Below are positions 54 through 24,377 of a DNA stretch of 58,760 bases, piece by piece (the first letter of the stretch is position 1; every line of letters begins with the position of its first letter). A program made the position numbers and the translations under genes. The stretch comes from Sphingomonadaceae bacterium (GTDB taxonomy: Bacteria; Chloroflexota; UBA6077): contig JBLNDL010000017.1 in assembly GCA_050261575.1 (NCBI GenBank), positions 1 to 58,760 on the forward strand, given 5' to 3'. The notes under the pieces were generated by a model. It ran no database searches. It was not told the origin of the DNA and saw only the letters and a program-made list of their open reading frames with translations.

Positions 54-1688
54 CTACCCCTCGATGTACACCGACCTCATGGTGGAGCGTGCGAAGTCGG
101 GGTGCACCGCCAACCCCTTCACGTTGGGGGCAATCCCCACCACCGACTTCTCGAAGTATGGCACGATGATCGGGCCGCGTTCGATGAAGATCTGCTGGAT
201 CTTCTTGTACAGCTCGATCCGCTTCTGCTGGTCCATCTCCGAGGCTGCCTGCTCCGCCAGCGCGTCCAGCTCGGGGTCGGACCAGTGGGTCTCGTTCCAC
301 TTCGCCCCCGTCACGTAGGCCAATTGCAGGTAGGGCTGCGGCGTCGCCCTCGATCCCCAGTCGGTGATGCCGTAGTCCACCTCCAGCCACCCGTCGTCCT
401 GGAAGTAGGTGTCCACCGGCACCACGTTGATGTCCACCGTCACTCCAGCCTCGGCCAACTGCTCCTTCCACACCACGGCGATCTTCGGCACGTCGAAGCT
501 GTTCTGGGCAGTCAACGTGATCTTCAGGTTCTCGTAGCCCGCCTCCTTCAATAGCTCCTTCGCCTTCGCCACGTCCCTCTTGAAGTCCGGCACCTGCAGG
601 TAGTAGTCGCCGAAGGCGGGTCCGATCGGCGTGTCGTGGCCGACCACCCCGTACCCCATCCGCGCCGCCTGGAGGATCGCGGCGCGATCGGTGGCCAGCT
701 TCAGTGCCTGCCGCACCCGCGGATCCTTCGCCGCGCCCCGATCGCAACGCATCCGGATCGCGAAGTGCATGTTGGTGTTCCCCTCCAGCAGGTTCGTCTT
801 ACCCTCCCGCTTCAGGGTCTCGGCCAGCTCCGCCGGCAGCCCCATCACCATATGGATCTCGCCGGCCCTCAACGCCTCCACGTGGGAGTTGAGCTGCGGG
901 GCGTAGATGTCCTGGATCCCATCCAGATAGGGCATCCCGGACATCCAGTAGTTCGGGTTGCGTTTGAAGGTGGACCGGTCCTCGGACGAGAACTTCTCGA
1001 GGATGAAGGGACCGGTCCCGTTGAAGGTTGTCTTGAAGTCCTTCTGATCCGAGGCCACGATCGCCGCGTGGTAGTCCCCCAGGTCCGCCGGCAGATCGGG
1101 ATTGGGCTTTGCAAGGACGAACTGGACGTGGGAGGCGTCCAACGCCTTGATCTCGCTGATGTTGGCGTAGAGGGCCACCGTGCCAGCCCCAACCGACTTG
1201 TCCCGCAGCCGATTGAAGGTGAAGATCACGTCGTCGGTCGTCAAGTCCTTCCCGTTGTGGAAGGTGACACCCTTGCGCAACTCGAAGGTCCACACCTTGC
1301 CGTCCGGGCTGTGCTCCCAGCCCGTCGCCAGGGCGGGCGCCGGCTGGTTCTTCTCGTCGATCCAGACGAACCAGTCGTAAACCTGGGCCACGGCGGCGAT
1401 CTCGTTCACGTTGGTCTGAAAGGCCGGGTCCAGAGTAGTGGGAGGCTGCCAGCCTCGCTTCAGGATCCCGCCCTTCTTGGGCCCGGAGGCCGCCGCGGGT
1501 GTGCCGCCGGATGCAGGTGTCGATCCCGTCGGGGCTTGAGTCTGGCTCGATCCGGAGCAACCGGCCAACGAGCCGGCCACCGCGCCGGAAGCACCCAGCA
1601 GAATCAGCGCCCGCACGAACTGGCGGCGGCTTATCTGCCCCGAGCGCAGCCGATTGAACAGCCTGTCGATCGCATCTTCGTTACTCAA
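54..1688 (-). CDS. ABC transporter substrate-binding lipoprotein, peptide/nickel family 5, Tat signal
   Basis: SRRQFV twin-arginine motif, LAGC lipobox, family-5 signature (PALATGWEHSPDGKVWTFELRKGVTFHNG), GTGPF motif. TTG start at 1688 after GGGGGTG. Confidence 0.92.
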   Translation of the reverse strand: MSNEDAIDRLFNRLRSGQISRRQFVRALILLGASGAVAGSLAGCSGSSQTQAPTGSTPASGGTPAAASGPKKGGILKRGWQPPTTLDPAFQTNVNEIAAVAQVYDWFVWIDEKNQPAPALATGWEHSPDGKVWTFELRKGVTFHNGKDLTTDDVIFTFNRLRDKSVGAGTVALYANISEIKALDASHVQFVLAKPNPDLPADLGDYHAAIVASDQKDFKTTFNGTGPFILEKFSSEDRSTFKRNPNYWMSGMPYLDGIQDIYAPQLNSHVEALRAGEIHMVMGLPAELAETLKREGKTNLLEGNTNMHFAIRMRCDRGAAKDPRVRQALKLATDRAAILQAARMGYGVVGHDTPIGPAFGDYYLQVPDFKRDVAKAKELLKEAGYENLKITLTAQNSFDVPKIAVVWKEQLAEAGVTVDINVVPVDTYFQDDGWLEVDYGITDWGSRATPQPYLQLAYVTGAKWNETHWSDPELDALAEQAASEMDQQKRIELYKKIQQIFIERGPIIVPYFEKSVVGIAPNVKGLAVHPDFARSTMRSVYIEG

Positions 1689-1931
1689 GTCAGCACCCCC
1701 ACAACTAAGTCCAGAATCACCAGCGTCGACCCAAGTCGGCCTGGGCAACACTCGGCAGATCCATCCGGCGGCCTGCCGCCACCATCAAGTATGTAAACGA
1801 CACATCGTCCGTCGAGACACCCAACCACGAAGCACCTGGACACGAAGGTTCACTGGAACTGCCTGGCCATCTCGGTGCATTCGTGGCCCAGTACCAAGGC
1901 GCTACTGCCGGAGAGGATAGCGCAGTATACC

Positions 1932-3383
1932 CTATTCCGGAGATGGATGGGCCGCCTTTCTCCGCCTCACGTACTCCAGCACCGCCTCCTCCAGCGCCGG
2001 ATCGATGGGGGGAGGCTGGTACTGGCGCAGCCACTCCTTCCAGAGAGCATTCGCCCTCTCCAGCACCGTCGGCGCGCCCTCCGCTTGCCACCCATCGTAG
2101 GGGCGGCTCTCCACCAGGGGCGAGATGCGGAGGGCGTCCCGATAGTTCGCCAGGGTATGATCCGACATCAGGAAGCTGCCACCCGGGCCCACCTGGGCCA
2201 CTGTGTCCAGGGCGAGGGATTCCCCATCCACGCGGATACCTTCGATGAATCGCTCCATGGAGGCAAGCATCTCCAGATCCAACGCGAACTGTTCGTAGCT
2301 GGCCGTCACCCCACCCTCCAGCCAACCTGCCGCATGGAGCAGCATGTGGGTGTTGCTGAGGGTCAGCCCCCACAGGCAGCTCATCTTCTCGATCGCGGCC
2401 TGGGCATCGCAGGTGGGAGAAGATGTCACCAACCCCATGCCGCGGTGGGGCAATCGGTAACGGCGAGCCAGTTGCCCTGCCGCGACCTCCATCTGCACAC
2501 CCTCTGGATTCCCAAAGAGCGGACTGCCCGAGCGCATGTCGCCACTGGAGCCGAAGGAGCCGTACAGTACGGGGGTGCCGGGGTTGACCAGCTCGGCGAG
2601 GGCGACGCCCGCCAGCACCTCGGCGTTCTGCTGGGCCAGCGACCCCGCCGAGGTGACGGGCGACATCACCCCCGTCAGGATAAACGGGGTGATCTTGAGG
2701 GGCTGGCCGGCACCGGCAAAGGCCACGATTGCCTCGAGGGTCTCCCTGCTGAAGCGCAGCGGGCTGTCCACGTTGACGCCGCCCAGCACCGCCGGCCGCC
2801 CGCGCAGGGCCACTTCGCCCCCCACCAGCAGCGCCGCCACCGCGAGGGCATCCTCGGCGCCGGCACCGTCGAGCCCCATCACCCCCAGCGGCTTGTCTGA
2901 GTAGCGGATGGCAGCGTACAGGAAGTCCAGGTGCCGCGTGGTGGCGGGGAGATCCAGGGCCTCCACGCAGCGGTAGGTCAGGTCCAGCAGCGGGCTCTGA
3001 TGGGTCAACTGGATGAAGCGGACCTGGTCTGCGTAGCTGCCGGGCCTGCGCCCCTCGTCCATGCTGGAGACCATCGATGGACCGCCCACCGGCACGAGCA
3101 CCATCCCATCCCCGCCCACCTCGACGCTCCGGTTGGGGTCCCGGCCGTGCAGGGTGAAGCGCTCCGGGGCTCGCGCGACCGCCTCCATCACCAGTTCCCG
3201 CGGCAGGCGAGCCCGACGAGCCGGCCAGTCCACCAAGGCCCCTTTGCCCTCCACCAGATCCAGCGCCCGGTCGTCCAGCATCTCCACCCCTACCTCCTCC
3301 AGCAGGCGTAGCGATGCCAGGTGTATCACCTCGACCTGATCCTCAGATAGGGCGGCCAGCGGACGGGATGGGATCTTCAACAT
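1932..3383 (-). CDS. Trimethylamine methyltransferase (MttB superfamily), non-pyrrolysine type
   Basis: IHLASLRLLEEVGV, NVDSPLRF, MSPVTSAGSLAQQNAEVLAG, DAQAAIEK, HAAGWLEGG, VGPGGSFL motifs. No in-frame TAG. Confidence 0.92.
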   Translation of the reverse strand: MLKIPSRPLAALSEDQVEVIHLASLRLLEEVGVEMLDDRALDLVEGKGALVDWPARRARLPRELVMEAVARAPERFTLHGRDPNRSVEVGGDGMVLVPVGGPSMVSSMDEGRRPGSYADQVRFIQLTHQSPLLDLTYRCVEALDLPATTRHLDFLYAAIRYSDKPLGVMGLDGAGAEDALAVAALLVGGEVALRGRPAVLGGVNVDSPLRFSRETLEAIVAFAGAGQPLKITPFILTGVMSPVTSAGSLAQQNAEVLAGVALAELVNPGTPVLYGSFGSSGDMRSGSPLFGNPEGVQMEVAAGQLARRYRLPHRGMGLVTSSPTCDAQAAIEKMSCLWGLTLSNTHMLLHAAGWLEGGVTASYEQFALDLEMLASMERFIEGIRVDGESLALDTVAQVGPGGSFLMSDHTLANYRDALRISPLVESRPYDGWQAEGAPTVLERANALWKEWLRQYQPPPIDPALEEAVLEYVRRRKAAHPSPE

Positions 3384-3419
3384 GCGGCGAGACCACCTTC
3401 TTCCCAAGAAACCTCGGCG

Positions 3420-3501
3420 GATCCGCAGCTATCGCAGATCGATGCAGAAACGCGTCCCCCGGTTCGGCATCTGTGAGCATCTGCGTGCATCTGCGGATAG
3501 G
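3420..3501. repeat. ATCTGCG/CGCAGAT-type imperfect inverted repeat element
   Basis: ATCCGCAG..CGCAGAT..GCAGA facing CATCTGTG-CATCTGCG-CATCTGCGGAT. A related copy lies at ~39485-39565. Confidence 0.65.
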
Positions 3502-3518
3502 CTCTGTTGGGCACTCCG

Positions 3519-3588
3519 AAGCAGGCATCTCTCGTTTATGTCAACTTCTCTGGCAGGAAACGTGTACCCTACCCAGAGATACCTGCTT
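3519..3588 (-). repeat. 70-bp TIR-bounded element, copy 1 (MITE-like)
   Basis: Ends AAGCAGGCATCTCT...AGAGATACCTGCTT. Its reverse complement aligns without gaps to 34828-34897, 39329-39398 and 39574-39643. Confidence 0.85.
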
Positions 3589-3740
3589 GGCCACGACTGC
3601 GAAGCAGGCGGCGCCGTGGAGAGATGAGCCCTTGGGGCGGGACCTCTTGTAGCACGGCCAACGCCGCCCTGTCAACCGAGGCCCTGCCCAACCTGCTACA
3701 ATGGCGCGGCACCCATTCTCACTCGTCGCAGGACAGCGCC

Positions 3741-4841
3741 ATGCCGACCATCGACACCAAGCCCCCATCCGGGATGCGCGACTTCCTTCCGGCGGAGTGC
3801 CGCCTCCGCCGAAAGCTCTTCTCCACCGCCGTGGAAGTCTTCGAGCGCTACGGCTACCTGCCCTTGGAGACTCCGGCCATGGAGCGGCTGGAGATCCTCG
3901 AGGGAAGCTACGCCGAGGAAGGTGCAAGGCAGATCTACAAGGTCTCGAAGCAGGGCGGCAAGTGCGTGAGCGGCCTCGGCCTTCGCTACAACTTCACCGT
4001 TCCACTCGCCCGTGTGGCGGCGGAGCACCAGGGCAAGCTGGGCACCCTCTTCAAGGTGTATCAGGCCGGCCCCGTGTGGAGAGGCGACCGGCCGGGGCAT
4101 GGGCGCTACCGGGAGTCCTACCACTGCGACGTGGATCTGGTGGGCAGCGCGTCCCCCCTGGCCGACGCCGAGGCCATCCTGGTACTGGCCGAAGCACTTC
4201 GGGCCATGGGCATAGGGGAGTACACGGTCAGGCTGAGCAGCCGAAGGCTGGTGGACTCACCGAAGAGCCAGGAGGGGCTGGCCGAGGTCGAGACGATCGT
4301 GGGGCTGATCGAGCCTCTGCTGGAGGGCGGCCGGATCGTCGTCGATCCGCGGCTGGCCCGCGGCCTGGACTACTACACCGGCTCAATCTTCGAGATCGAC
4401 GCGCCGGACGCCGCCGGAAGCCTCGCCCTGGGCGGGCGCTACGACGAGTTGATCGGCCTCTTCGCAGGAAGGCCGGTACCGGCCTGCGGCGGCTCGCTCT
4501 ACATGGATCGGGTCGCGCTGCTGCTCCAGGGGCAGAGCGGAGGGGCGACCTCCTCGGCCACGGCGATGGTGACCGTCTGGGACCCCGCGCACAGGCTCGA
4601 GAGCCTGCGACTGGCAGCCGAGCTGCGAAGGGAGGGGATCCCCACAGAGCTGTACGTTGGCGAGGGCGGACTGAGCAAGCAACTCCGATACGCATCCGAG
4701 AGAGGCATCCCCTTCTGCATCCTGCTTGGCCCCGACGAGGCCGCGAGGGGAGAGGTCGCGATCAAGGAGATGCGGACCGGAACCCAGCGCGCCCTGCCTC
4801 GCGATCGAGTGTCGGAGGCCCTGAGGGGCGCGCAGCCGTAG
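3741..4841 (+). CDS. Histidyl-tRNA synthetase-like protein (divergent paralog, 366 aa)
   Basis: GMRDFLP, ETPAME, LRYNFTVPLAR, VWRGDRPGHGRYRE, ARGLDYYTG, GGRYD and a C-terminal anticodon-binding domain (LSKQLRYA...LLGPDE). Several catalytic residues are altered. Confidence 0.85.
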   Translation: MPTIDTKPPSGMRDFLPAECRLRRKLFSTAVEVFERYGYLPLETPAMERLEILEGSYAEEGARQIYKVSKQGGKCVSGLGLRYNFTVPLARVAAEHQGKLGTLFKVYQAGPVWRGDRPGHGRYRESYHCDVDLVGSASPLADAEAILVLAEALRAMGIGEYTVRLSSRRLVDSPKSQEGLAEVETIVGLIEPLLEGGRIVVDPRLARGLDYYTGSIFEIDAPDAAGSLALGGRYDELIGLFAGRPVPACGGSLYMDRVALLLQGQSGGATSSATAMVTVWDPAHRLESLRLAAELRREGIPTELYVGEGGLSKQLRYASERGIPFCILLGPDEAARGEVAIKEMRTGTQRALPRDRVSEALRGAQP

Positions 4842-4852
4842 AGCCTGCCCCC

Positions 4853-4965
4853 GTAGGAGCCCAGCCCGGCGCGGGAGCGACCGCCGTGTCCGCCCTTCCG
4901 GTGCAGACGCTGGGCAAGGGCCCACCCAGGACGACGGGCGGGCGGATATGCATGTCCGCCCCTAC
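4853..4965. repeat. GTAG-family REP/REPIN-like element between convergent genes
   Basis: Starts GTAGGAGC and ends CCGCCCCTAC. Contains the hairpin GGGCGGATATGCATGTCCGCCC. Confidence 0.6.
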
Positions 4966-5005
4966 GATCGCCCGGGGGCACTGCATGCTCTGCGCGTAAG
5001 GCGCA

Positions 5006-6340
5006 TCAGGCCCCTTGTACCGCGGATCGACCGTAGAAGCCGGTAACCAGATCCGCGGGCGAGGACACCAGATCCATCAGCAGATTCACCAGGGAGAAAG
5101 CCGCGGGCCGGCTCGCCAGCAGCCTGGGCAACAGGTTGTGGTGGACGTAGCACTTCTCCACGGTCCGAATGCCCTCCCGCAGCTCCTCTGGTCCCACCTC
5201 CGTGCGGCCACCCGCCACAGCCAGCGCCACGGCGTACCATCGAACGAGCGCAAAGTAGGCCAGCAGATACTGCACACCCTTCCGCACCGTGGGCTGAGCC
5301 AGAAGCCCCTTCCGCCGAAGCCACTCGCAGAGGTAGCGGAGCATCATCGGCCGGAGACGCGGCGAGTCCTGGTCGAAACTCACCCGAGGCATCGCCTCCA
5401 GATCGATCTCGGTCGCCAGGGAGGGGAGGGACACCCTACCGCGACCCCGCGCGAGGCCCACCGCCTGCCCCAGAACCCCTCGCATCAGGCCGTCACCCCG
5501 CTCGGTGGCCACACTGGCCTCCACGAGGGCGATGAGCGGGGCGAGCGCTGACCGCTGCCGGCCGAAGCTCGGGACCTTCCCCAGCGGCTGCTGATACAGC
5601 CACTCTACCCCGCTGTCGCTCCACATCATGTGCTGCAGCCAGTTGGCGAAGGGCGCTGCGGCTTTGTCGCCCCGACCGTACTGGGCCACCGCCCCATCCA
5701 CCAGCCGGTGCACGGCCAGCAGACGGACCGCCATGGTGTGGGAGTTCTCCTCCAGGATCTCGATTATGGCCCTCTCCAGCGCCTCGTAGCTCCAAATGTC
5801 CAGCCCGATGTCGGCGGTGAGCACGATCCGGTCGGGGGTCGAGATCAGACCGCTAACCCGAACCCCGTCGGCCCGGACAGCATCCCAGAGTGGGTCGGCT
5901 CGCATCGACTCGATCCACTCCCTCTGCTGGGCCAGGGGCGTGCCCTCGCCCGCCGCGACCGACCTGCAGGCAAAGGAGGCCGAGGCGACCACCTCCGAGG
6001 GGGTCTCAACCAGCACCAGCGGGAAGAGGCGACAGATCAGGGGCTTCGCCTCGTAGCCCAACCGCTCGTGGATCAGGCAGCGGCCGTCCTCCTCCAGGAA
6101 GGCGCAGCCCACCCCCAGCTTGGCCAGCCGGAAGCGGGGAGAGGATTCGAGGCTAGGGCCCGGGTTCTCCACGAAGAGGATCTTGCCCGCCAGCCTGGGC
6201 GAGATCTCCCCCCAATCGATCCCCTCCAGCCTCGCCTTCTCCTCTGGAAGCAGGGGCACCATCAACCCACGGCAGCAGTCCCCGCACTGCTGGCAGGTGA
6301 AATGGACCTCCGGGCTTATCTCGAGTCGAATGCTATCCAT
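5006..6340 (-). CDS. YkgJ/FliB-like cysteine-cluster (putative Fe-S or Zn) protein with a long C-terminal domain
   Basis: FTCQQCGDCC, CAFLEEDGRCLIH, KPLICRLFP, followed by a further Cys (FACRS). Confidence 0.85.
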   Translation of the reverse strand: MDSIRLEISPEVHFTCQQCGDCCRGLMVPLLPEEKARLEGIDWGEISPRLAGKILFVENPGPSLESSPRFRLAKLGVGCAFLEEDGRCLIHERLGYEAKPLICRLFPLVLVETPSEVVASASFACRSVAAGEGTPLAQQREWIESMRADPLWDAVRADGVRVSGLISTPDRIVLTADIGLDIWSYEALERAIIEILEENSHTMAVRLLAVHRLVDGAVAQYGRGDKAAAPFANWLQHMMWSDSGVEWLYQQPLGKVPSFGRQRSALAPLIALVEASVATERGDGLMRGVLGQAVGLARGRGRVSLPSLATEIDLEAMPRVSFDQDSPRLRPMMLRYLCEWLRRKGLLAQPTVRKGVQYLLAYFALVRWYAVALAVAGGRTEVGPEELREGIRTVEKCYVHHNLLPRLLASRPAAFSLVNLLMDLVSSPADLVTGFYGRSAVQGA

Positions 6341-12268: not shown

Positions 12269-13675
12269 ATGCCGCCGATTCCACGTCCCCAGAATGGCAA
12301 GACTGTGCTGCTGCCCCGACGCAGGGCGCTGGTCGCCGCCGAGACCGACGTGCTGGTGGTCGGGGGCGGCCCGGCAGGGCTCGGCGCGGCGCTCGGCGCC
12401 GCCAGCGCTGGCGCCTCCGTAGTGCTGGCGGAGCGTTACGGCTTCCTGGGCGGCAACGCCACAGCCGCCCTGGTGATGCCGCTGGCCCTCAGCCACACTC
12501 AGAAAGGGCCACCAGTCCCCGGTAGGGTAAGGAACCTGATGCCCCGCGATCACGGGCCGGGCGACCCGGCCATCGCCGGTGCTTTCAAGACCCTGGTGGA
12601 ACGGTTGGTCGCGGCAGGCGGCGCCATACCCCCCTCGGAGGAGACGGGCTACGTAACCCCCTTCGACCCTGAGGCGTTCAAACTGGTCGCCACGGAGCTG
12701 CTGGACGAGGCGGGGGTCGCCTTCCTCCTGCACGCCCTCGCCAGCGGGACGATCGGCAACGGCCGGGTGGAGGGGGTGGTGTTCGAGACGAAGTCCGGGC
12801 CAGTCGTGGTCAGGGCGACGGCGGTCGTGGACTGCACCGGCGACGGCGACATAGCTGCACGGGCAGGGGCGCCCTTCCAGGTCGGCAGGCAGGAGGATGG
12901 GCTGGTCCAGCCGATGAGCCTGCTGTTCCGGATGCTCGAGTTCGAACGTGCCGCCTTCGAGGCATACGAGAGGGCCCATCCGGACCAGTGGTGCGGCGAC
13001 TACGGCCTGTGGGAGCTGATCGAGAGGGCGAAGGCGGCTGGAGAGCTGGATCTACCTCGGAATGAGTTGCTGATCTTCGGCACGCCCCACGAGCAGGAGG
13101 TCACCATCAACGGCACCCGGGTCACGAAAGTGCTGGGCACCGACGTATGGGACCTCACCTACGCGGAGTGGGAGAGCCGGAGGCAGATGCACCAGGTGGT
13201 GGCCTTTCTAAGGAAATACGTCCCCGGCTTCGCCCAGTCCTACCTGGGGCAGAGCGGCATGAACGTGGGGGTGCGGGAGAGCAGACGGATCCTCGGCGAG
13301 TACCGGCTAACGGCGGACGACGTGCTCTCCGCGCGCAAGTTCCCCGACGCCATAGCGCGGGGGACCTACCCCATCGACATCCACAACCCCACCGGCCCCG
13401 GCACCGTCCTGAAACGAGTTCCGCCGGGGGAGGCGTACGACATCCCCCTGCGCTGCCTGCTGCCAGTGGGGGTGGAGCAGTTGCTGGTCGCCGGCCGCTG
13501 CATCTCCGGCACTCACGAGGCCCACTCCTCCTATCGGGTGATGCCGATCTGCATGGCCACGGGGCAGGCCGCGGGGGTCTGCGCGGCGCTGGGGGTGCGA
13601 GCAGGCAGGCCACCCAGGCAGGTCCCGGCCGAGGAAGTGCGGCGAGAGCTGCTGCGGCAGGGGGCAATACTGTAG
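12269..13675 (+). CDS. FAD-dependent oxidoreductase (FAD_oxidored-type family), paralog 1
   Basis: DVLVVGGGPAG, VDCTGDGD, GVRESRRI, YDIPLRCL, LLVAGRCIS, MATGQAAG. Confidence 0.92.
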   Translation: MPPIPRPQNGKTVLLPRRRALVAAETDVLVVGGGPAGLGAALGAASAGASVVLAERYGFLGGNATAALVMPLALSHTQKGPPVPGRVRNLMPRDHGPGDPAIAGAFKTLVERLVAAGGAIPPSEETGYVTPFDPEAFKLVATELLDEAGVAFLLHALASGTIGNGRVEGVVFETKSGPVVVRATAVVDCTGDGDIAARAGAPFQVGRQEDGLVQPMSLLFRMLEFERAAFEAYERAHPDQWCGDYGLWELIERAKAAGELDLPRNELLIFGTPHEQEVTINGTRVTKVLGTDVWDLTYAEWESRRQMHQVVAFLRKYVPGFAQSYLGQSGMNVGVRESRRILGEYRLTADDVLSARKFPDAIARGTYPIDIHNPTGPGTVLKRVPPGEAYDIPLRCLLPVGVEQLLVAGRCISGTHEAHSSYRVMPICMATGQAAGVCAALGVRAGRPPRQVPAEEVRRELLRQGAIL

Positions 13676-13777
13676 AAACGGCGTAACGATGCGCCCGCTA
13701 GCGTTGCGCCGCCCGCGACCGGGTGGAGACCAGGGGCGGCCATCGGGAATAAGCCGGGAAAAGAGGGCAGGATCGAT

Positions 13778-14248
13778 ATGAGCGCACTCGAGCGCATGCA
13801 CGTAGACGAGAAGCAGTTGCTGAAAAGGCTGGACGCTCTGGACTGGACGGGCCCGCTCACAGCATCGGAGATCGCCACCCAGCTAGCCGGAGTCCCCGAG
13901 GAGCTGTTCGGGGATATACCAGAGGGAGCCATCTTCCACAGCCCAGAGGAGGTGGTTCGAGCGCTGCGAGGGGAAGTGCACGTCGATGCGGCGCACCTCC
14001 CCTCCGAAGGGGCGGAATCGATCGGCGGCCCGGCCGGGTATGGCGACTCCACCACGGGCCGGCTCGTGACGCCCCCCTCCACCTCGCACGGCATCGGCTC
14101 CGGGACCGATACCGGCGACACCGGCAGCGCCGACACCACGTCCACGGGCTGGGGACGGGCGGGCACGACGTTCGGGGAGGAAGCAGTCGAGGAGCGGATC
14201 GAGGAGGAGCTGGGCGGCGAAGAGGAGGAACTGCCCGAGAGAGGTTGA
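13778..14248 (+). CDS. Acidic hypothetical protein with a DUF2795-like N-terminus and disordered G/T/E-rich tail
   Basis: AGAGGG SD, coding-like sequence. LDALDWTGPLT...IPEGAIFHSPEEVVRAL resembles DUF2795 (by eye). Confidence 0.7.
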   Translation: MSALERMHVDEKQLLKRLDALDWTGPLTASEIATQLAGVPEELFGDIPEGAIFHSPEEVVRALRGEVHVDAAHLPSEGAESIGGPAGYGDSTTGRLVTPPSTSHGIGSGTDTGDTGSADTTSTGWGRAGTTFGEEAVEERIEEELGGEEEELPERG

Positions 14249-14383
14249 ACTGGCGACGGTATGCTGTCACGGTATCGTGAACCATCCCGCAGCGTTGGGG
14301 CCGAGGTATGGATCGTGCGCGCCTCCCCCGCGGTCGTCCACGAGGCGGGCATACAAGAGAGCGAAACCCGATGGGAGATGAGA

Positions 14384-15346
14384 ATGGATGAAGCTGTCTT
14401 CACCCGCTACGGTCGAGGGCCTTTGATCACACCAGATGACCTGCCCTTTCAACCCAATGCGGTTCTAAACCCGGGTGTCGCCGAGATGGATGGGGCGGTG
14501 GTCCTGCTGTTGCGCGTCGAGGACCGACAGGGTATCTCGCACATCTATGTGGCCAGGAGCGCCAACGGGGTCGACGGCTGGAGAATCGAAAGGCAGCCGC
14601 TGCTGGCAGCCGATCTCCCCGAATACCCATTTGAGGAGTGGGGGTGCGAAGACGCGCGGGTGACTCAGATCGAGCCCAGAAAGTGGGTGATCGCCTACAC
14701 AGCCTACTCTCGATACGGCCCAGCGGTGGCCCTCGCCACCACACAGGATTTCGAGACGGTGGACAGGCTGGGAACGGTGCTCTCTCCACCCAACAAGGAT
14801 GCCGCCCTGTTCCCGGCGCAGTTCGAAGGGCGCTGGATTCTGCTGCATCGCCCGGTGACCGGAGGGCAGGAACACATCTGGTACGCCTGTTCCGCGGAGG
14901 ATCTGCTCCACTGGACCCTCCCAGGGATCCTGCTGCCAGAGAGAGGTGGGCCCTGGTGGGACGGGCTTCGGGTTGGCGTTGGCGCCCCGCCGATTCGGAC
15001 GGATCAGGGATGGCTGCTCATCTACCACGGGGTGAAGGAGATGGGAGCTCGACCGGTTTACCGGCTCGGACTGAGCTTGCTGGATGGGAACAACCCACGA
15101 AAGATGCTTGCCCGGGCTTCTGAGTGGGTCTTTGCACCCGAGGTGGAGTACGAGCAGCGGGGTCTCGTGCCCAACGTGGTCTACAGTTGCGGAGCGCTCC
15201 ACCGGGGTGATGAGATCTGGATGTACTACGGGGCGGCAGACACGGTGATCGGGCTGGCAACGGCCAAACTCGCGGACCTCCAGTCGTTCGTCTGGAGGCA
15301 CGACTTTCTAAGCCGCGTGGGCAGGGAGAAGGGAATGGAGAGATGA
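14384..15346 (+). CDS. Glycoside hydrolase family 130 (beta-mannoside phosphorylase-like)
   Basis: AVLNPG, LLRVED, GCEDARVT, NKDAALFP, LHRP, WLLIYHGV, PNVVYSCG, YYGAADT. Confidence 0.92.
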   Translation: MDEAVFTRYGRGPLITPDDLPFQPNAVLNPGVAEMDGAVVLLLRVEDRQGISHIYVARSANGVDGWRIERQPLLAADLPEYPFEEWGCEDARVTQIEPRKWVIAYTAYSRYGPAVALATTQDFETVDRLGTVLSPPNKDAALFPAQFEGRWILLHRPVTGGQEHIWYACSAEDLLHWTLPGILLPERGGPWWDGLRVGVGAPPIRTDQGWLLIYHGVKEMGARPVYRLGLSLLDGNNPRKMLARASEWVFAPEVEYEQRGLVPNVVYSCGALHRGDEIWMYYGAADTVIGLATAKLADLQSFVWRHDFLSRVGREKGMER

Positions 15347-15365
15347 GACGCGAGCAGGCGCAGCG

Positions 15366-15860
15366 CTACGTTGCCGGCCCGGCGTCTCCCCCCCTTGTCG
15401 CATCAGCGCCCCGCACGATCAGCACCGGGCAGGGTGCATGGCGGGCCACGAAATCGCTCACGCTACCCAGCAGCAGGCTTTGAGAGGGATCGAGCCCCCG
15501 ACTCCCCATGACGATCAGATCGAACTTGCCCTGGAGCGCCGTCAGCACGATGACGTCCCCCGGCCGCCCCTCCCGTAGCTCGGTGGTGGCGGGGATACCC
15601 GCGTCGGTGAAGACCTTCTGGGTGAGCGAGAGGATGGCCTTCCCGGCCTCCATGAGCTGCTGCCGCATCTGGGATTCCGGTGCCTTCAGGAAGTACTCGG
15701 GGATGCGGGGCACCCCCACTACGTGCAGGATGGTCACCTCGGCCCCGAAGGCCCGAGCCATCTCGACCGCGTAGTCGGCGGCCGCCAGCGCCTCCGTAGA
15801 CCCGTCGGTAGGCACCAGTATCTTCTTGATCAGGGTCGGCTTCTTCTGCACCGTGGCCAA
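15366..15860 (-). CDS. Universal stress protein (single domain)
   Basis: KKILVPTDGS, DLIVMGSRG, LLGSVSDFVARHAPCPVLIVR. GGGAGG SD before TTG. Confidence 0.9.
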   Translation of the reverse strand: MATVQKKPTLIKKILVPTDGSTEALAAADYAVEMARAFGAEVTILHVVGVPRIPEYFLKAPESQMRQQLMEAGKAILSLTQKVFTDAGIPATTELREGRPGDVIVLTALQGKFDLIVMGSRGLDPSQSLLLGSVSDFVARHAPCPVLIVRGADATRGGDAGPAT

Positions 15861-15874
15861 CTGTTGGACCCTCC

Positions 15875-16755
15875 CTAACCTATCTTTGCCTGCTCGCCGG
15901 CCACCAGCACCGGGCGGCCCGCGCCCCTGAGAACCGCGTCGCTGACGCTCCCCAGGGCGAAACGAACGGGGCCGCTCACGCTGCGTCGACCCACCGCGAC
16001 GACGTCGTAGCCGCCGGTCTGCGCGCGCCGGGTTATCGCCTGAGCCGGTCGCCCCTCGACCAGGACCGAGTCGCACTCCACCCCCGCCGCCTCGCAACTG
16101 CAGGCCGCCGCCTCCAGGATCGCTTCACCTGCCCTGCCCAGGGTCAGCTTGAGATCCTGCCTCACACTCCTCTTGGGAACGGCCGCCAGCATGGTCAAGT
16201 CGACCACATACAGCAGGGTGATCCTGGCGCCGAAGGCTCGAGCCAGATCGACCGCCGCTGCCAGAGCGCGCTCCGAGTGCTGCGATCCGTCCGCCGCGAC
16301 CAGGATCCGCCCGATCGCCTCCGGAACGGTCCCCCTGACCACAAGCACGGGGCAGGGCGCAAGCTCGGCCGTCCGCTTCGCGACGCTCCCGAGGATGAGC
16401 CCCCGGATCCCCCCGAGGCCGCGATGGCCTGTCACCACCAGATCGTAACCTTCGGAGCCGGACAGATCGATGATCTTCTCGGCGGGGTCCCCAGGGCGAC
16501 AGGCCTGTCCGGCTCGAGTCCCAGCCCCCGCACCAGGTCCGCCCCCTCCTGGACGATGGGCAGGAAATCCTCCTCGTCCACGAGAGGGACGAAGAAGCCG
16601 CTCACGCCCGCGGTCACCGGAGGGATCTTCCCCACGGTGAGCACGGTGACCTCGGCGCCCGTGCGGCGAGCGATGTAGGCGGCCATCCGCGCCGGGGCTC
16701 GCGCCGGGTCCGAACCATCGCAGGCGACCAGCAGTCTCTTCACGGCCTCTGCCAT
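15875..16755 (-). pseudogene. Tandem-domain universal stress protein with a single frameshift (real or sequencing error)
   Basis: N-part (KRLLVACDGS...VALG) and C-part (DPAEKIID...GSVAKR...RILVAADGS...) are in different frames. Adding one G to the G4 run at 16489-16492 restores the ORF. Confidence 0.85.
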
Positions 16756-16840
16756 CCCCTCGCTGACTGAAGGATCGCCCGGCTGGTGGCACATATCGTT
16801 CCAGCGAAGCCCGCAGCCCTTCGTTTCCCCCTCAAACCCG

Positions 16841-16869
16841 TTGACAGGACACGATCGAAGTGATACCTT
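16841..16869 (+). promoter_or_regulatory. Sigma70-type promoter of the Lrp-led operon
   Basis: TTGACA-17 bp-TACCTT with an extended -10 TG. Confidence 0.65.
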
Positions 16870-16904
16870 CGTGCCGTCGAATTATTACATAGGTGAGCGT
16901 GAAG

Positions 16905-17429
16905 ATGTCGGAAATCGACGCCATCGACGCCGCTATCATCGCAGAGCTCCGAAGAGACGGTCGAGCCACCAACAGCGAGATCGCCCGAAGGATCGGCACC
17001 ACCGAGGCTATGGTCCGGCGAAGAATCGACCGGCTCATCAGCCGCAACATCCTCCGCATCGTGGCAGTCACCAACCCCTACCGCCAGGGCTTCTCCCTGG
17101 ATGCTCTCGTCAACGCGCAGGTGGACGTAGACAAGCTCGCAGAGGTCGCCGCGAGGGTCGCCGAAATCCCGGAGGTGCGCTACGCCTCCATCGTCTCCGG
17201 AGACTACAACCTCACCTTCAGGGTCCTGCTACGCTCCCACGGTGACTTCTACGACTTCGTCACCGAGAAGTTGGGCTCGATACCCGGCCTGCAGAAGGTG
17301 GAGACGGCCTACGTGCTGCGCGTCGTCAAGCGCACGTTCGACTGGGTCCCGGAGGAGACGGCCGGCCCCAGCCAGTTGGAGATCTCCCTGGACGGACAGC
17401 TATCGGGACAGAAAGAGTCCAAACCCTGA
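16905..17429 (+). CDS. Lrp/AsnC family transcriptional regulator
   Basis: IDAIDAAIIAELRRDGRATNSEIARRIG HTH, and a C-terminal domain with SGDYNL. Confidence 0.92.
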   Translation: MSEIDAIDAAIIAELRRDGRATNSEIARRIGTTEAMVRRRIDRLISRNILRIVAVTNPYRQGFSLDALVNAQVDVDKLAEVAARVAEIPEVRYASIVSGDYNLTFRVLLRSHGDFYDFVTEKLGSIPGLQKVETAYVLRVVKRTFDWVPEETAGPSQLEISLDGQLSGQKESKP

Positions 17430-17488
17430 CACAGATGGCAGCCGGGCGATTCGACGATCGCTGGGGTGAGCAGAAGGGATACTGAAGG

Positions 17489-18856
17489 ATGAGCACGAGA
17501 AGCGCTGACGTCGTCATAGTGGGCGGGGGAACGGCGGGGGTAGCCGCCGCCATTGCCGCCGCTCGCAACGGCGCCAAGACCCTAATCGTGGAGAAGAACG
17601 GATTCCTCGGGGGGACGGCTACCGCCGGTAACGTCTTCCACGGCTTCTTCGACTGCCGCGGGCGACAGGTCGTGAAGGGCATCGCCCAGGAGTTGGTGCA
17701 GCGCATGGTGGACGAGGGCGGGTCCCAGGGCCACCTCTGCGGCAGCAGGTGGGGCCCCGACGCCCCTGCGGATTTCGTCTACTGCCAGACCCCCTACGAC
17801 CTGGAGACGTTCAAGTACGTCGCCCTGAAGGTAGTGGAGGAGGCGGGGGTCGAGATGCTGCTCCACTCCTTCTTCGCCGGGTCCTATGTGGAGAACGACC
17901 GGCTGAGGCGGATCCAGATAGTGAACAAGTCGGGCCTCTCGGAGATCGAGGCCAAGGTGTTCGTCGACTGCAGCGGGGACGCGGACGTGGCCGCCGCGGC
18001 GGGGGTGCCGTACGAGTTCGGCCGGAGTGACGGGTTGGCCCAGAACGTCACGCTGCTGTTCACCGTTGCCGGCGTCGACTTCGACAGGGTGGTGGAGTAC
18101 TCGAAGGAGAACCTGCGCATCCGGACGTGGGGGGAGTGGCACAGCCGCGGTATGCGGGGTCGCAAGCTGGGCGAGGAGCAGGAGAGCTGGGTATCTCTGA
18201 GCGGGAAGATCAACGTAGAGCCCGACCCCAACAGCGGCAAGTTCCTCTCCTGCGGCTTCCGCTCGCTGAGGCCAGGCGAGCTACGGCTCAACGTCACCAG
18301 AACGGTGGGGATCGACGCCACCAGCGCAGAGGATCTAACCCGGGCGGAGGTTGAGGAGCGGAAGAACGTCTTCGAGATCGTGAAGAAGCTGCGACAGTTC
18401 GTGCCCGGCTTCGAGAAGGCATACCTGCACTCTACGGCCGTAGAGGTGGGCATAAGGGAAAGCCGAAGGATCCTCGGCGAGTACCAACTGACTGCGGAAG
18501 ATGTACTGGAAGGGAGGAGTTTTGAGGACGGAATAGCTAAGGGCGCCTACACCATGGATATCCACGATCCCAAGGGCGGGCACGTGGTGCACACCTTCAT
18601 CAAGGATGGCGGAAGCTACGACATCCCCTACAGATGTCTTGTCCCCCTGAAGGTGGACGGGCTTCTGGTCGCGGGTCGCTGCATCTCCGCCACTCACGAG
18701 GCCCTGGGATCGACTCGCCAGATGCCAACCTGTGTGGCCCTAGGCGAGGCTGCCGGCACCGCTGCCGCCCTGTCCGCCGCCGCGAAGGTCGAACCCAGGC
18801 GGCTGGACACTCGGCTGCTCAGGGAGACGCTCCTCCGCCAGGGAGCCTACGTCTAG
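17489..18856 (+). CDS. FAD-dependent oxidoreductase, paralog 2
   Basis: DVVIVGGGTAG, VDCSGDAD, GIRESRRI, YDIPYRCL, LLVAGRCIS. Confidence 0.92.
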   Translation: MSTRSADVVIVGGGTAGVAAAIAAARNGAKTLIVEKNGFLGGTATAGNVFHGFFDCRGRQVVKGIAQELVQRMVDEGGSQGHLCGSRWGPDAPADFVYCQTPYDLETFKYVALKVVEEAGVEMLLHSFFAGSYVENDRLRRIQIVNKSGLSEIEAKVFVDCSGDADVAAAAGVPYEFGRSDGLAQNVTLLFTVAGVDFDRVVEYSKENLRIRTWGEWHSRGMRGRKLGEEQESWVSLSGKINVEPDPNSGKFLSCGFRSLRPGELRLNVTRTVGIDATSAEDLTRAEVEERKNVFEIVKKLRQFVPGFEKAYLHSTAVEVGIRESRRILGEYQLTAEDVLEGRSFEDGIAKGAYTMDIHDPKGGHVVHTFIKDGGSYDIPYRCLVPLKVDGLLVAGRCISATHEALGSTRQMPTCVALGEAAGTAAALSAAAKVEPRRLDTRLLRETLLRQGAYV

Positions 18857-18975
18857 CCGGAGTTCGAACCGACCTGACGCCGGGGATTGTCGATCGCGCT
18901 CTCCCAATATGACGGGATCCATGCATCGCACGCACCCTTGGGACGGGTAATGATGGGAAATGAGGAGGTAGATCC

Positions 18976-19983
18976 GTGTTCCTTCCAAGATCTCTTGCAG
19001 GCCTGGGGAAGTCTCGCTCTCGGTCCGTCATCGTCCTCCTGCTCCTGGCAAGCCTGGCCGCCACCGTCCTGGTGGGATGTCAGACCGGGAGCAAACCCTA
19101 CCCCTCCAAGGAGATCAGCATAATCGTGCCCTTCGGCCCGGGTGGAACCAGCGACCTGACGGGCCGCTTCGTGGCAGATGCGCTCTCCAAGCAGTTGGGC
19201 CAGCCGGTTGTCGTGGTGAACAGGGAGGGCGCTGGCTCGGCCGTGGGCCTTCAGGAGCTGGCCTCCGCCAAGGCCGATGGATACACCATCGGTCTGGCTA
19301 CGTCCTCGCTGGTCACCAACAAGATCATCGGCCAGGCGAAGGTGGACTACACCCAACTGGCCCCGTTGGCGCAGATGCTCAACTCCCCGGGCTCCTTCGC
19401 CGTGAAGGCCGACTCCCCCTACAAGAACGTGAAGGAGCTCCTGGACGACGCCAAGGCCAGGCCGGACAAGGTGCGGGTGGGCAACACCGGCACCGGCGCC
19501 ACCTGGCACCTGATGTCCGTGATGATCGAGGACCTCACCGGCGCACAGCTACTGGACGTCCCATACGACGGCGGCTCCGCCATCGTGGCGGCGCTGCTGG
19601 GCGGGCACATCGAGGTCGGCGTACAGTCCGCCTCGGGCTTCGTCCCCAACGTGGAAGGCGGCAAGCTGCGATTCCTCGGGATCGCCGCGGACAAGCGCGA
19701 CCCCTCGATGCCCGACGTGCCGACCTTCAAGGAGCAGGGAGTGGATCTGTCCTACGGCCTGTGGAACGGGTTCTTCGCGCCGAAGGGAACCCCCGCCGAG
19801 GCGGTTAACAAGCTCTCCGAAGCGCTGGAGAAGATCGCGGAGAGTCCCGAGTTCGCGGACTTCGCCAAGAAGAACGGCTTCCAGTTGGACTACAAGAACC
19901 CCGACGGGTTCACCCAGTTGCTCAAGTCCGACACCGACCGGATCGAAAGCCTCGCGAAGAAGCATAACCTCACGACCAAGTAG
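18976..19983 (+). CDS. tctC: Tripartite tricarboxylate transporter substrate-binding lipoprotein
   Basis: LVGC lipobox, YPSKEISIIVPFGPGGTSD, ADGYTI, VPYDGG, PDVPTFKEQG. Confidence 0.93.
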   Translation: MFLPRSLAGLGKSRSRSVIVLLLLASLAATVLVGCQTGSKPYPSKEISIIVPFGPGGTSDLTGRFVADALSKQLGQPVVVVNREGAGSAVGLQELASAKADGYTIGLATSSLVTNKIIGQAKVDYTQLAPLAQMLNSPGSFAVKADSPYKNVKELLDDAKARPDKVRVGNTGTGATWHLMSVMIEDLTGAQLLDVPYDGGSAIVAALLGGHIEVGVQSASGFVPNVEGGKLRFLGIAADKRDPSMPDVPTFKEQGVDLSYGLWNGFFAPKGTPAEAVNKLSEALEKIAESPEFADFAKKNGFQLDYKNPDGFTQLLKSDTDRIESLAKKHNLTTK

Positions 19984-19989
19984 AGGCGT

Positions 19990-20015
19990 GGGCTCCGGGA
20001 TCGCTCCCGGAGCCC
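19990..20015 (+). terminator. Intercistronic stem-loop after tctC (likely stabiliser or partial terminator)
   Basis: GGGCTCCGGGA-TCGC-TCCCGGAGCCC, a perfect 11-bp stem with no U-tract. Confidence 0.55.
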
Positions 20016-20033
20016 CCAATTGGAGACGGTACC

Positions 20034-20486
20034 ATGTTCAGACGTGACCTGGCGCTCGGTGCCATCAGTCTGGCGATAGCCGCCGCGGTATGGTTGGAAA
20101 CCGCCGACTACCCCGTCCAGGCGGACATCAGTCGAGGGTTGGGCCCGGCGTTCTTCCCCCGACTGCTGGGTGCACTGATCGCCGTATTCGGCATAGTCAT
20201 CATCCTGAGTGCTCTTCGCGCTTCGAGGGATGCAGCCAGCCCGTTGCTGCCCAACGCCATGCCGGTTGCCCTGCTGGGGGTGATGGGAGCCTACAGCGTG
20301 CTGTTGGTACCGGTGGGCTTCGCCATCGCGACCCCTCTCTTCCTCCTGGCTGGCGCCACCATGCTGGGGCTTCGACTGCAGAAGGGGATACTCTTTGCCC
20401 TGGGGCTGACCGCGGCCACCTACTTGGTGTTCAAGGTGATGCTTGCGGTCCCGCTGCCGATGGGGGAACTGCTGGGAGGGCTGTGA
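20034..20486 (+). CDS. tctB: Tripartite tricarboxylate transporter small membrane subunit
   Basis: GPAFFP motif, 4-5 TM segments, C-terminal VFKVMLAVPLP. Lies between tctC and tctA. Confidence 0.9.
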   Translation: MFRRDLALGAISLAIAAAVWLETADYPVQADISRGLGPAFFPRLLGALIAVFGIVIILSALRASRDAASPLLPNAMPVALLGVMGAYSVLLVPVGFAIATPLFLLAGATMLGLRLQKGILFALGLTAATYLVFKVMLAVPLPMGELLGGL

Positions 20487-20487
20487 T

Positions 20488-22002: not shown

Positions 22003-22041
22003 GGCAACCCTCACATAGGTTTCTATGAAGGAGGCCCTACC

Positions 22042-23496: not shown

Positions 23497-24377
23497 GACT
23501 GGGGTTCGTGGGGCTCGGGGCGATGGGTGAGCCGATGTCCCGAAACCTCCTGAGGGCCGGACACGAGCTCACCGTGTACAACAGATCCACCCCAGCGCGG
23601 GAACGGGCTCGTGAGGCAGGGGCGATAGTGGTGGAGACGCCGCAAGCGGTGGCGGAGGCCAGCGAGGTAGTGTTCAGTTGTATCGCCACGCCCTCTGCGG
23701 TGGAGGAGGTCTATCTGGGACCGAAGGGGCTGAGGGCGGGGAGCCGACCCGGCCATCTGTTCGTGGATCTGAGCAGCATCACCCCATCCCTGGCCCGAGA
23801 GCTCTCAGACCGGCTGAAGGAGACGGGCGCCTCGTTCGTGGATGCTCCCGTCAGCGGAGGCACCCACGGCGCCCGGGCGGGCACCCTCACTATCATGGCG
23901 GGGGCGGACCCCGCCGACCTTCAGCGGGCTGAGCCACTGCTGAGAGCGATAGGACGCAAGATCTACCACGTCGGCCCGGTGGGGGCCGGCAGCACCGCCA
24001 AGATCCTGAACCAGTTGCTGGTCGGGGTGAACACCCTGGCAGCCATGGAGATGGCGCTGCTGAGTCAGCGCTCAGGGGTTGACCCCTCGATGCTGGAGGA
24101 GATCATCACCAACAGCACCGGGTACAGCCGCGTCTTCGAGAGCCGCTTCCCCAAGGCGATGGCCCGGGACTACTCCCTCGGCTTCGCCGTCGATCTCATG
24201 AGCAAGGATCTCAGGCTGGTGAAGGCCATGGCAGAGGATCTGGGGGTGGCGACACCCCTGGCATCGCTGGCCCTGTCGGTTTACGAGAGCGCCAGCGCCC
24301 TCGGCTTCGGCCGAAAGGACACCACCGCCGCCATCGAGGCGCTGGAACGGCAGTCACCCTTCAAAGGCTCGTCGTAG
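23493..24377 (+). CDS. Beta-hydroxyacid dehydrogenase (3-hydroxyisobutyrate dehydrogenase/GarR family)
   Basis: GFVGLGAMG, FVDAPVSGG, GSTAKILNQ, KDLRL. ATGA overlap with the upstream gene. Confidence 0.93.
   Translation: MRLGFVGLGAMGEPMSRNLLRAGHELTVYNRSTPARERAREAGAIVVETPQAVAEASEVVFSCIATPSAVEEVYLGPKGLRAGSRPGHLFVDLSSITPSLARELSDRLKETGASFVDAPVSGGTHGARAGTLTIMAGADPADLQRAEPLLRAIGRKIYHVGPVGAGSTAKILNQLLVGVNTLAAMEMALLSQRSGVDPSMLEEIITNSTGYSRVFESRFPKAMARDYSLGFAVDLMSKDLRLVKAMAEDLGVATPLASLALSVYESASALGFGRKDTTAAIEALERQSPFKGSS

Follow-up and report, generated by a model that had tools for sequence, protein, structure and literature searches.

A histidyl-tRNA synthetase paralogue of a Chloroflexota bacterium with clade-fixed active-site replacements and without the insertion domain

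The window, that is, the whole 58,760-nucleotide stretch of contig JBLNDL010000017.1 (assembly GCA_050261575.1, Chloroflexota lineage UBA6077), carries near its start a gene for a second protein of the histidyl-tRNA synthetase (HisRS) type, named P0001 here. The same genome has a canonical hisS, and P0001 probably does a different job from that enzyme. In P0001 and its four nearest relatives (P0002-P0005), several active-site residues that are almost universal in HisRS are replaced, each by the same new residue, and P0001 has in addition lost the insertion domain. Judged from the sequences, the active-site changes are remodelling, not erosion; they are older than the deletion and common to the clade. 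The data establish paralogy, clade-wide fixation of the switches, conservation of the kind left by purifying selection, host-like codon usage and an intact predicted fold, and from the sequences we infer the type of ligand, the catalysis and the acceptor. The reading placed first, and held tentatively, is that P0001 may be a maintained, neofunctionalised HisRS paralogue, i.e., an active enzyme that forms adenylates from an altered substrate of the imidazole type.

The Gene and Its Product

The open reading frame at 3741-4841 (+) is uninterrupted, with 366 codons followed by a stop codon, and ATG 3741 as the start is in line with the N-termini of homologues. In the Pfam search, the protein matches tRNA-synt_His (PF13393, 1.6e-41) in two stretches and HGTP_anticodon (PF03129, 1.1e-14) at residues 283-362, so that the anticodon domain is intact, as a preliminary description made from the letters alone had said. 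With TIGR00442, the NCBIfam equivalog profile of hisS, P0001 scores 313 bits (cut-off 286.75), and the match is split into profile positions 2-167 and 227-405, with 168-226 left unmatched.

The motif strings quoted in that description are all real in the 366-residue translation: LRYNFT (L81-R-Y-N84-F85-T86), RYRESYH (R122-Y-R-E-S126-Y-H128), RGLDYY (R207-G-L-D-Y-Y212), SLALGGRYD (S227-L-A-L230-G-G-R233-Y-D) and GGSLYMDR (G250-G-S-L-Y254-M-D256-R257). The short linker in place of the insertion domain is likewise present as SRRLVDSPKSQEG, and the junction reads S167-R-R-L-V-D-S-P-K-S-Q-E-G179. GGRYD (G231-D235) and RGLDYY (R207-Y212) are invariant in the clade alignments. As for the roles of these positions, N84 stands at what we take to be the site of the carboxylate that binds the alpha-amine (presumably Glu83 in E. 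coli numbering), the motif-2 Phe replaced by S126 is presumably the residue stacked on adenine, and RGLDYY is taken to supply the HisRS-specific catalytic arginine and the tyrosines of the imidazole pocket.

Active-Site Switches and Their Conservation

The alignment comprises 269 HisRS-type proteins, namely the five clade members and 264 ordinary HisRS. N84, F85, S126, H128, L230 and Y254 occur together in five of the 269, which are P0001-P0005, and none of the 264 ordinary proteins has N84, S126 or Y254. Among these 264, Q128 and G254 are present in 100%, D84 in 99%, F126 in 98% and L85 in 94%. Six switches are fixed in all five clade members (G58A, D84N, L85F, F126S, Q128H and G254Y); at R106 all five have A or V, K56 varies within the clade, and L64Q and N166S are found in P0001 only. 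The preliminary description had spoken of eroded ATP and histidine sites. The switches at near-invariant residues are real, but erosion is the wrong word for them, since the catalytic arginines are kept and the new residues are fixed throughout the clade. Its motif departures are unusual at N84, S126, H128, L230 and Y254, while residue 229, for which ordinary HisRS have A, S, G or T, and E256D (the ending "DR" is common) are normal variation, so that L230 is the only unusual residue at 229-230.

For the conservation test, the 344 columns common to all five clade members were used. In the 264 ordinary HisRS, 67 of them reach a conservation of 90% or more; the clade is invariant at 63 of these 67 and keeps the ordinary residue at 57. 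Over the 344 columns, conservation in ordinary HisRS correlates with identity within the clade (Spearman 0.58). The control consisted of 120 quintets of ordinary HisRS with a mean pairwise identity of 0.71 (range 0.54-0.78), on average somewhat less divergent than the clade (0.63), and no quintet (0/120) had any fixed switch at such columns, against six in the clade.

Residues R114, D116, R117, R122, R124, E125, T86, D132, E60 and E218 are clade-invariant, and so are R207, the following G-L-D, Y211, Y212, G231, G232, R233, Y234, D235 and R257. P0001 itself thus holds R114, R122, R124, R207, R233 and R257. Judged by motif equivalence, the retained set would include the contacts to the acceptor end, the imidazole pocket and the arginines that bind phosphate. 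Change has thus been selective: these elements are kept, and what differs are the alpha-amine and adenine sub-sites, which appear to have been rebuilt.

Published work on other HisRS can be laid over this pattern. In the part of PMC8558854 drawn on here, nine residues are charge-conserved across 12 HisRS structures (E. coli D13, E47, E83, R113, E131, D141, R259, E270 and R287), and E83 was computed as the top electrostatic contributor in both half-reactions. Eight of the nine positions keep their charge in P0001, and the equivalent of E83 (N84) is the only loss; the residues were mapped by motif equivalence through the canonical HisS of the genome, and the correspondence is approximate. For Thermus HisRS, the portion of Tian et al. 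2015 (PMC4357726) used here reports that aminoacylation requires Glu64 and Glu114, that C74 is read by Arg120, that the acceptor end is clamped by Arg115 and Arg122 together with the insertion domain, and that the imidazole pocket is lined by Thr83, Glu130 and Gly304/Phe305. Their equivalents by motif position in P0001 (E60, D116, R122, R117/R124, T86, D132 and G250) are all retained.

Loss of the Insertion Domain

Between query residues 166 and 182 of the 269-protein alignment, P0001 has 16 residues and P0002-P0005 have 83, and all other proteins have at least 50 except P0173 (21). About 67 residues are gone relative to P0002-P0005, between "...RLSSR" and "RLVDSP...", with both flanks alignable; together with the unmatched TIGR00442 positions 168-226, this bears out the view that the domain had been cut to a few residues. 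Homologues sharing the deletion, which the preliminary description had proposed to collect, are absent: it is found in the P0001 species only, and none of the other homologues has it. Three assemblies contribute one member each to the 90%-identity cluster of P0001; these differ by one residue each, and the domain is absent in all. The three assemblies carry either the identical 366-residue form or one with a longer called N-terminus, and the frame is open in all. Since three assemblies carry the deletion, it is not an assembly artefact.

P0173, a metagenomic protein of 308 amino acids, was considered as a comparator for the deletion and rejected, being a fragment that also lacks the preceding core strands. 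It has canonical active-site residues without the insertion domain, and its gene was probably broken or mis-assembled.

The insertion domain of the full-length clade members, P0002-P0005, departs from the ordinary pattern. Ordinary HisRS conserve 11 of its columns to 70% or more, and at only one of these do all four proteins retain the residue; for the 100% conserved D of the DKLDK motif they have G, V, A and A. In comparison, P0002-P0005 keep 75% and 80% of the canonical-conserved columns in the two catalytic halves and 88% in the anticodon-binding domain. It is concluded that the canonical role of the insertion domain had changed already in the clade ancestor and that the P0001 lineage then dispensed with the domain.

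Predicted Structure and Coding Signature

The AF2 (AlphaFold2) model of P0001 has a mean predicted local distance difference test score (pLDDT) of 93.5 and a predicted template-modelling score (pTM) of 0.89. Across the junction, the pLDDT is 96, 87 and 98 for residue blocks 161-170, 171-180 and 181-190, and the strands 104-113, 125-134 and 161-167 stand at 90-99. The Foldseek matches listed from the Protein Data Bank (PDB) are all HisRS (TMq 0.77-0.87), and the ESM Atlas model of P0001 (pLDDT 0.86) superposes on full-length HisRS clusters with a template-modelling (TM) score of 0.94 over 363 of 366 residues. The models thus suggest that P0001 keeps a compact HisRS fold despite the deletion, and the structural check put forward in the preliminary description gives a confidently predicted HisRS fold.

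The GC content at third codon positions (GC3) is 0.864 for the P0001 gene, 0.869 for canonical hisS and 0.813 for the genome median. The codon index is 0.770 for the P0001 gene (89th percentile of 1518 long open reading frames) and 0.758 for canonical hisS. With GC3 and codon index so host-like, the gene is therefore a long-standing resident of the genome.

Relatives and Phylogeny

A word-indexed search covered about 5.8 billion protein clusters, with 8000 candidates scored and the best 120 listed. Among the best 120 of 8000, the nearest to P0001 are P0002-P0005 at 446-493 bits, followed by the next protein at 409 bits. These four are metagenomic proteins of 427-440 amino acids with no taxon, 61-65% identical to P0001. 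A search with a profile of the five members returned the same five only, four at 794-820 bits and P0001 at 673, with the next protein at 571. In an exhaustive HMMER search over 1.84 billion 50%-identity representatives, P0001 came out as its own representative, and the next protein stood at 337.8 bits and 49% identity. The clade is very rare: its seven sequences, grouped at 90% identity, fall into five of some 5.8 billion clusters.

In the tree, P0001-P0005 form a clade with an ultrafast bootstrap of 100, a Shimodaira–Hasegawa approximate likelihood-ratio test (SH-aLRT) value of 99 and a stem of 0.47. Its tip lengths (0.16-0.58) are in the range of ordinary HisRS, with 0.51 for P0001 and 0.58 for P0002; the sister group is left unresolved by the careful tree. 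By sequence, P0001 belongs to the eukaryote/archaea-like HisRS, and its best solved relatives in phmmer are 6nhi (1.8e-59), 3net and human HisRS.

Motif scans brought no further clade member. In 185,579 species genomes, 23 pattern matches were obtained, none in a HisRS relative; one metagenome scan gave 70 pattern matches, none related, and another gave 10 loci, all only 26-28% identical. No orthologue of P0001 was found in 40 related genomes (a set that includes the unpublished G037, used in that count only), where the best match, 51% identical over half of the protein, is the canonical and sole HisRS of its genome (G039). Three same-family genomes with a match have one HisRS gene each, and a fourth (64% complete) has no match.

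A different second gene of the HisRS type, coding for 509-541 amino acids, is present in most same-order relatives and absent from the source genome. At two loci, L040 and L042 (Table 1), it exceeds the hisS cut-off and comes close to that of hisZ, and this long paralogue may be a HisZ-like protein that retained the anticodon domain.

Genome Background

The source assembly (3.72 Mb), from an uncultured bacterium, is 100% complete by markers. The nearest sequences to its Lon protease are from Chloroflexota (Thermomicrobiales, Ktedonobacterales), at 62-67% identity. On another contig (C39:14307-15506), it carries a canonical hisS of the bacterial type with 419 amino acids and 487.2 bits to TIGR00442 over profile positions 1-401, whose motifs are LRPEGT, RFREFHQ, GGGGRYD, RGLDYY and GFATGIER. 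The possibility raised in the preliminary description that P0001 is the only hisS is thereby removed. One tRNA-His(GTG) is found among the 51 tRNAs of the genome, with an encoded G-1 opposite C73. In the ARAGORN list of the same tRNAs, there are three tRNA-Trp(CCA) and one tRNA-SeC, and most others are single-copy; the extra copies might be explained by the estimated assembly contamination of 4.76%.

Long-form HisG works without HisZ. The hisG gene, on a third contig (C71), encodes HisG_C (PF08029, 2e-25), which makes it the long form, and HisZ is therefore not needed. No gene of the genome reached the cut-off of the hisZ profile TIGR00443 in the profile search (271.65 bits); P0001 gives it a partial match of 167.9 bits. 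The earlier statement that P0001 is not HisZ and has no hisG neighbour agrees with these results.

Proposed Function and Alternatives

On the favoured reading, a handful of near-universal active-site residues would have been replaced once in the ancestry of the clade and then held fixed: D84N and L85F on the alpha-amine-binding strand, F126S and Q128H where motif 2 ends, G254Y in motif 3, G58A, and A or V for R106. The protein would still be a folded, dimeric, ligand-binding class II enzyme with its dimer-forming core retained. Its ligand would be an acid that bears an imidazole group and has as its alpha-substituent something other than a protonated amine, or one in a different place, and the nucleotide would be bound in an altered way, the aromatic platform having shifted from motif 2 to motif 3. 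An acyl-adenylate would be formed and the acyl group then passed to tRNA-His or another acceptor; later, in the P0001 species, the insertion domain that clamps the acceptor stem would have been cleanly excised.

The three readings that come first rank as follows: an active enzyme with an altered substrate, a non-catalytic binder, and an ordinary or inhibitor-resistant HisRS. The active enzyme is ranked first because the phosphate-binding and transfer-step residues are invariant and the switches lead to specific residues. Extended to the clade, the idea would be that the five proteins are a new HisRS-derived enzyme family, which activates an imidazole acid without the normal protonated alpha-amine (e.g., a deaminated, hydroxy, N-modified or isomeric histidine derivative), places a motif-3 aromatic residue at the nucleotide site, and delivers the acyl group to tRNA-His or a non-tRNA acceptor; this wider proposal is possible and is offered with considerable reserve.

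Several points weigh against an active enzyme with a new substrate. What P0001 has lost (the alpha-amine carboxylate, the adenine-stacking Phe and the motif-3 Gly) are the very residues on which the canonical chemistry depends most, and G254Y could plug the ATP site instead of rebuilding it, which would favour a non-catalytic binder. The pairing in space of F126S with G254Y is suggested from sequence, and only five protein sequences stand behind the argument from constraint. P0001 has 6 private changes at conserved columns, and the other four have 3, 1, 0 and 1; the excess could mean some relaxation after the deletion, although the numbers are too small to weigh. The gene context offers no functional hint. 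Finally, the idea that the insertion domain was decaying in the clade was upheld only in part: the signature columns are lost, but AF2 models the domain of P0002 as confident helices (pLDDT 91-96 over residues 171-240, in a prediction that leans on an alignment dominated by ordinary HisRS), and the identity of the domain within the clade (0.38) is near that of random ordinary HisRS pairs (0.31). By this model, the domain was apparently not simply decaying in the clade.

The non-catalytic binder comes second because the residues lost are central to canonical chemistry and Y254 might fill the adenine site. P0001 would then be a pseudo-synthetase that uses its retained imidazole pocket, motif-2 loop and anticodon-binding domain to bind uncharged tRNA-His, histidine (or a related ligand), or both, and acts as a sensor or regulator like HisZ or the HisRS-like domain of GCN2, with Y254 filling the adenine pocket. 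It would fit the loss of the ligand for the charged alpha-amine (D84N), of the stacking Phe (F126S) and of the 100%-conserved motif-3 Gly (G254Y), the more so as the Glu83 equivalent is the largest electrostatic contributor to both half-reactions in the portion of PMC8558854 used; the acceptor-stem clamp of P0001 is gone as well, and the anticodon-binding domain is the part that keeps 88% of the canonical-conserved columns. However, a pure binder has no need of the phosphate-binding and catalytic arginines and the transfer-step acidic residues, which are clade-invariant, the switches run to specific fixed residues and not to variable ones, and no partner gene (hisG, kinase or regulator) adjoins. 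This reading is doubtful, yet a serious competitor of the altered-substrate enzyme.

It has a small chance of being correct that P0001 is a genuine second HisRS that makes His-tRNA-His, as a divergent isoform for stress or for resistance to a natural inhibitor. The score above the hisS equivalog cut-off (313 vs 286.75 bits) and the retained anticodon-binding domain, acceptor-end contacts, imidazole pocket and catalytic arginines speak for it, and for other amino acids there are duplicate synthetases that are resistant or specific to stress, according to the part of PMC9437257 consulted. On the other hand, Q128, G254, D84 and F126 (98-100% conserved) are all changed, which is hard to square with ordinary activation of histidine; the protein has no insertion domain, no biosynthetic cluster is nearby, and the table of PMC9437257, in the part consulted, has no such HisRS duplicate.

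A decaying duplicate, i.e., a pseudogene that is open by chance, is given very little credence, and neutral decay of P0001 is unlikely. In its favour are the deletion of an entire domain, the altered key catalytic residues, the count of private changes at conserved columns, which is highest in P0001 (6), and the occurrence of the gene in only one of 41 related genomes searched. Nevertheless, the frame is open in three assemblies, the switches are fixed in all five clade proteins although the other four are only 61-65% identical to P0001, the tip branch is not unusually long, codon usage matches the host and is above its average, and the fold is predicted confidently through the junction. With 63 of 67 highly conserved columns invariant and fixed switches in none of the 120 controls, the earlier preference for a maintained function over decay is strengthened.

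The readings of P0001 as the sole HisRS and as HisZ are excluded by the data; a HisZ-type regulatory subunit of ATP phosphoribosyltransferase would account for a HisRS paralogue without the full set of HisRS residues and with a partial TIGR00443 match (167.9 bits), but it is scarcely credible given a score below the cut-off of 271.65, a long-form hisG with its own HisG_C on another contig, and a position within the eukaryote/archaea-like HisRS, apart from HisZ.

Comparison with Known Systems

The eukaryote/archaea-like class IIa HisRS (6nhi of Elizabethkingia, 3net of Nostoc, 4phc/4g84 of human) have the same fold as P0001 (Foldseek TMq 0.83-0.87) and the same domain order, with the catalytic core followed by the HGTP anticodon-binding domain. 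RGLDYY, GGRYD, the motif-2 WRxDRP...GRxRE loop and the motif-3 arginine are common to both. The differences are D84N, L85F, F126S, Q128H, G254Y, G58A and R106A/V, at positions 90-100% conserved in the 264 members, the insertion region of 16 residues instead of about 83, and the coexistence of P0001 with a canonical hisS.

EpmA/PoxA-like paralogues keep the adenylation chemistry with a reshaped amino-acid pocket and a new acceptor. EpmA/PoxA itself, the LysRS paralogue for beta-lysine in the table of PMC9437257 (in the part seen), is comparable with P0001 by analogy only, in the new acceptor and the reshaped pocket; being LysRS-derived, it belongs to a different family and is without an anticodon-binding domain.

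HisZ and P0001 are both HisRS-derived and depart from the canonical catalytic residues. Unlike HisZ, P0001 falls below the TIGR00443 cut-off and has an anticodon-binding domain, and the HisG of its genome is long-form and unlinked. HisZ is stated to have no adenylation activity in the portions of PMC9437257 and PMC5388404 used here, whereas P0001 has all phosphate-binding arginines. The HisRS-like domain of GCN2 is another HisRS derivative that keeps tRNA-binding elements and has departed from HisRS catalysis; its similarity to P0001 in sequence is weak (E 3.6e-6 to 9f58). GCN2 is eukaryotic and kinase-fused, while P0001 is a bacterial, stand-alone 366-residue protein and far closer to real HisRS. 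The long Chloroflexota paralogue (L040, L042) resembles P0001 in that it accompanies a canonical hisS as another gene of the HisRS type and has an anticodon-binding-like C-terminus; it differs in being bacterial-type, in having the insertion region enlarged and not deleted, and in keeping the LRPE(F/L)T glutamate, and it is only 29-43% identical.

The table of the 2022 review PMC9437257, within the part at hand, has no HisRS duplicate and gives HisZ as the sole HisRS-like protein. Among HisRS paralogues, HisZ alone is mentioned in the sections used of PMC5388404, a 2017 survey of more than 2500 prokaryotic genomes. Among the results listed from full-text searches of open-access literature, none described a HisRS clade of this kind. 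On the portion of PMC9437257 used, then, HisZ is the only recognised bacterial HisRS paralogue family and no functional duplicate is recognised, and the P0001 clade differs from both. If active, P0001 would be a natural case of a class II synthetase pocket re-specified at the alpha-amine and adenine sub-sites, and a natural minimal HisRS scaffold without the insertion domain, of interest to synthetase evolution and engineering. If the new-family proposal is true, the Chloroflexota copy would show that the chemistry works without an insertion domain that all working HisRS keep; if the protein is inactive, bacteria would have in it a stand-alone counterpart of the HisRS-like module with which GCN2 senses tRNA. 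The clade is tiny, and its biological reach may accordingly be small.

Neighbouring Genes and Other Features of the Window

The P0001 gene is monocistronic on the + strand between two genes of the - strand (as shown in Table 1), and the MttB-family gene is transcribed divergently from it. No hisG, kinase or regulator adjoins it, and synteny is uninformative, as the flanking genes match only at 29-38% identity in same-family genomes. The AGGA of the candidate expression signals ends 7 nucleotides ahead of ATG 3741. A consensus promoter/terminator scan of 3300-5100 gave nothing, neither the window nor the upstream region had an Rfam match, with E allowed up to 1, no tRNA or riboswitch lies in the window, and the upstream RNA fold has z = -0.38.

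Table 1. Positions of P0001, its parts, its neighbours and the long paralogues; positions are those of the window unless a locus is named.
Feature	Position	Strand	Basis or remark
HisRS-like paralogue P0001, 366 amino acids + stop	3741..4841	+	Translation, Pfam, TIGR00442, alignment
Class II catalytic domain, N-terminal part (residues 1-168; motif 1, LRYNFT strand, motif 2)	3741..4244	+	Pfam, TIGR00442, alignment
N84-F85; D (99%) and L (94%) in ordinary HisRS	3990..3995	+	Alignment
S126-Y127-H128, end of motif 2; F (98%) and Q (100%) in ordinary HisRS	4116..4124	+	Alignment
Junction of insertion-domain loss, residues 169-179 (RLVDSPKSQEG)	4245..4277	+	Alignment, TIGR00442 gap, AF2
RGLDYY (R207-Y212), retained	4359..4376	+	Invariant in alignments
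Motif 3 GGSLYMDR (G250-R257); Y254 for Gly, R257 retained	4488..4511	+	Alignment
HGTP-type anticodon-binding domain, residues 283-362	4587..4826	+	PF03129, 1.1e-14
Candidate expression signals: TACAAT 3697-3702, AGGA 3730-3733	3697..3740	+	Read from sequence; weak
Family-5 solute-binding protein, adjoins the MttB-family gene	54-1751	-	
MttB-family methyltransferase (PF06253, 2.9e-152); no in-frame stop, hence non-pyrrolysine member	1932-3407	-	Pfam
CxxCxxCC-domain protein (PF03692, N-terminal), 444 amino acids	5006-6340	-	Pfam
Long HisZ-like HisRS paralogue	L042:497-2026 (G021:C1)	+	hisS 341 bits; hisZ 263.6 vs 271.65, single stretch
Long HisZ-like HisRS paralogue	L040:793-2418 (G009:C65)	+	hisS 319 bits; hisZ 262.1 vs 271.65, single stretch

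In the CxxCxxCC-domain protein (5006-6340, -), whose N-terminal domain is of a kind that chelates zinc or iron, the remaining approximately 330 residues are without a Pfam match, and its same-family homologues are 32-38% identical. The rest of the window is chromosomal housekeeping, with purine synthesis genes, birA, chaperonin, Lon and pyruvate kinase, and neither a biosynthetic cluster nor a mobile element was found in it. At 12269-24374 (+), there are three paralogous FAD_oxidored (PF12831) genes, an AsnC-type regulator, a TctCBA tripartite tricarboxylate transporter and a 3-hydroxyisobutyrate-dehydrogenase-like gene, a group that looks like a catabolic cluster.

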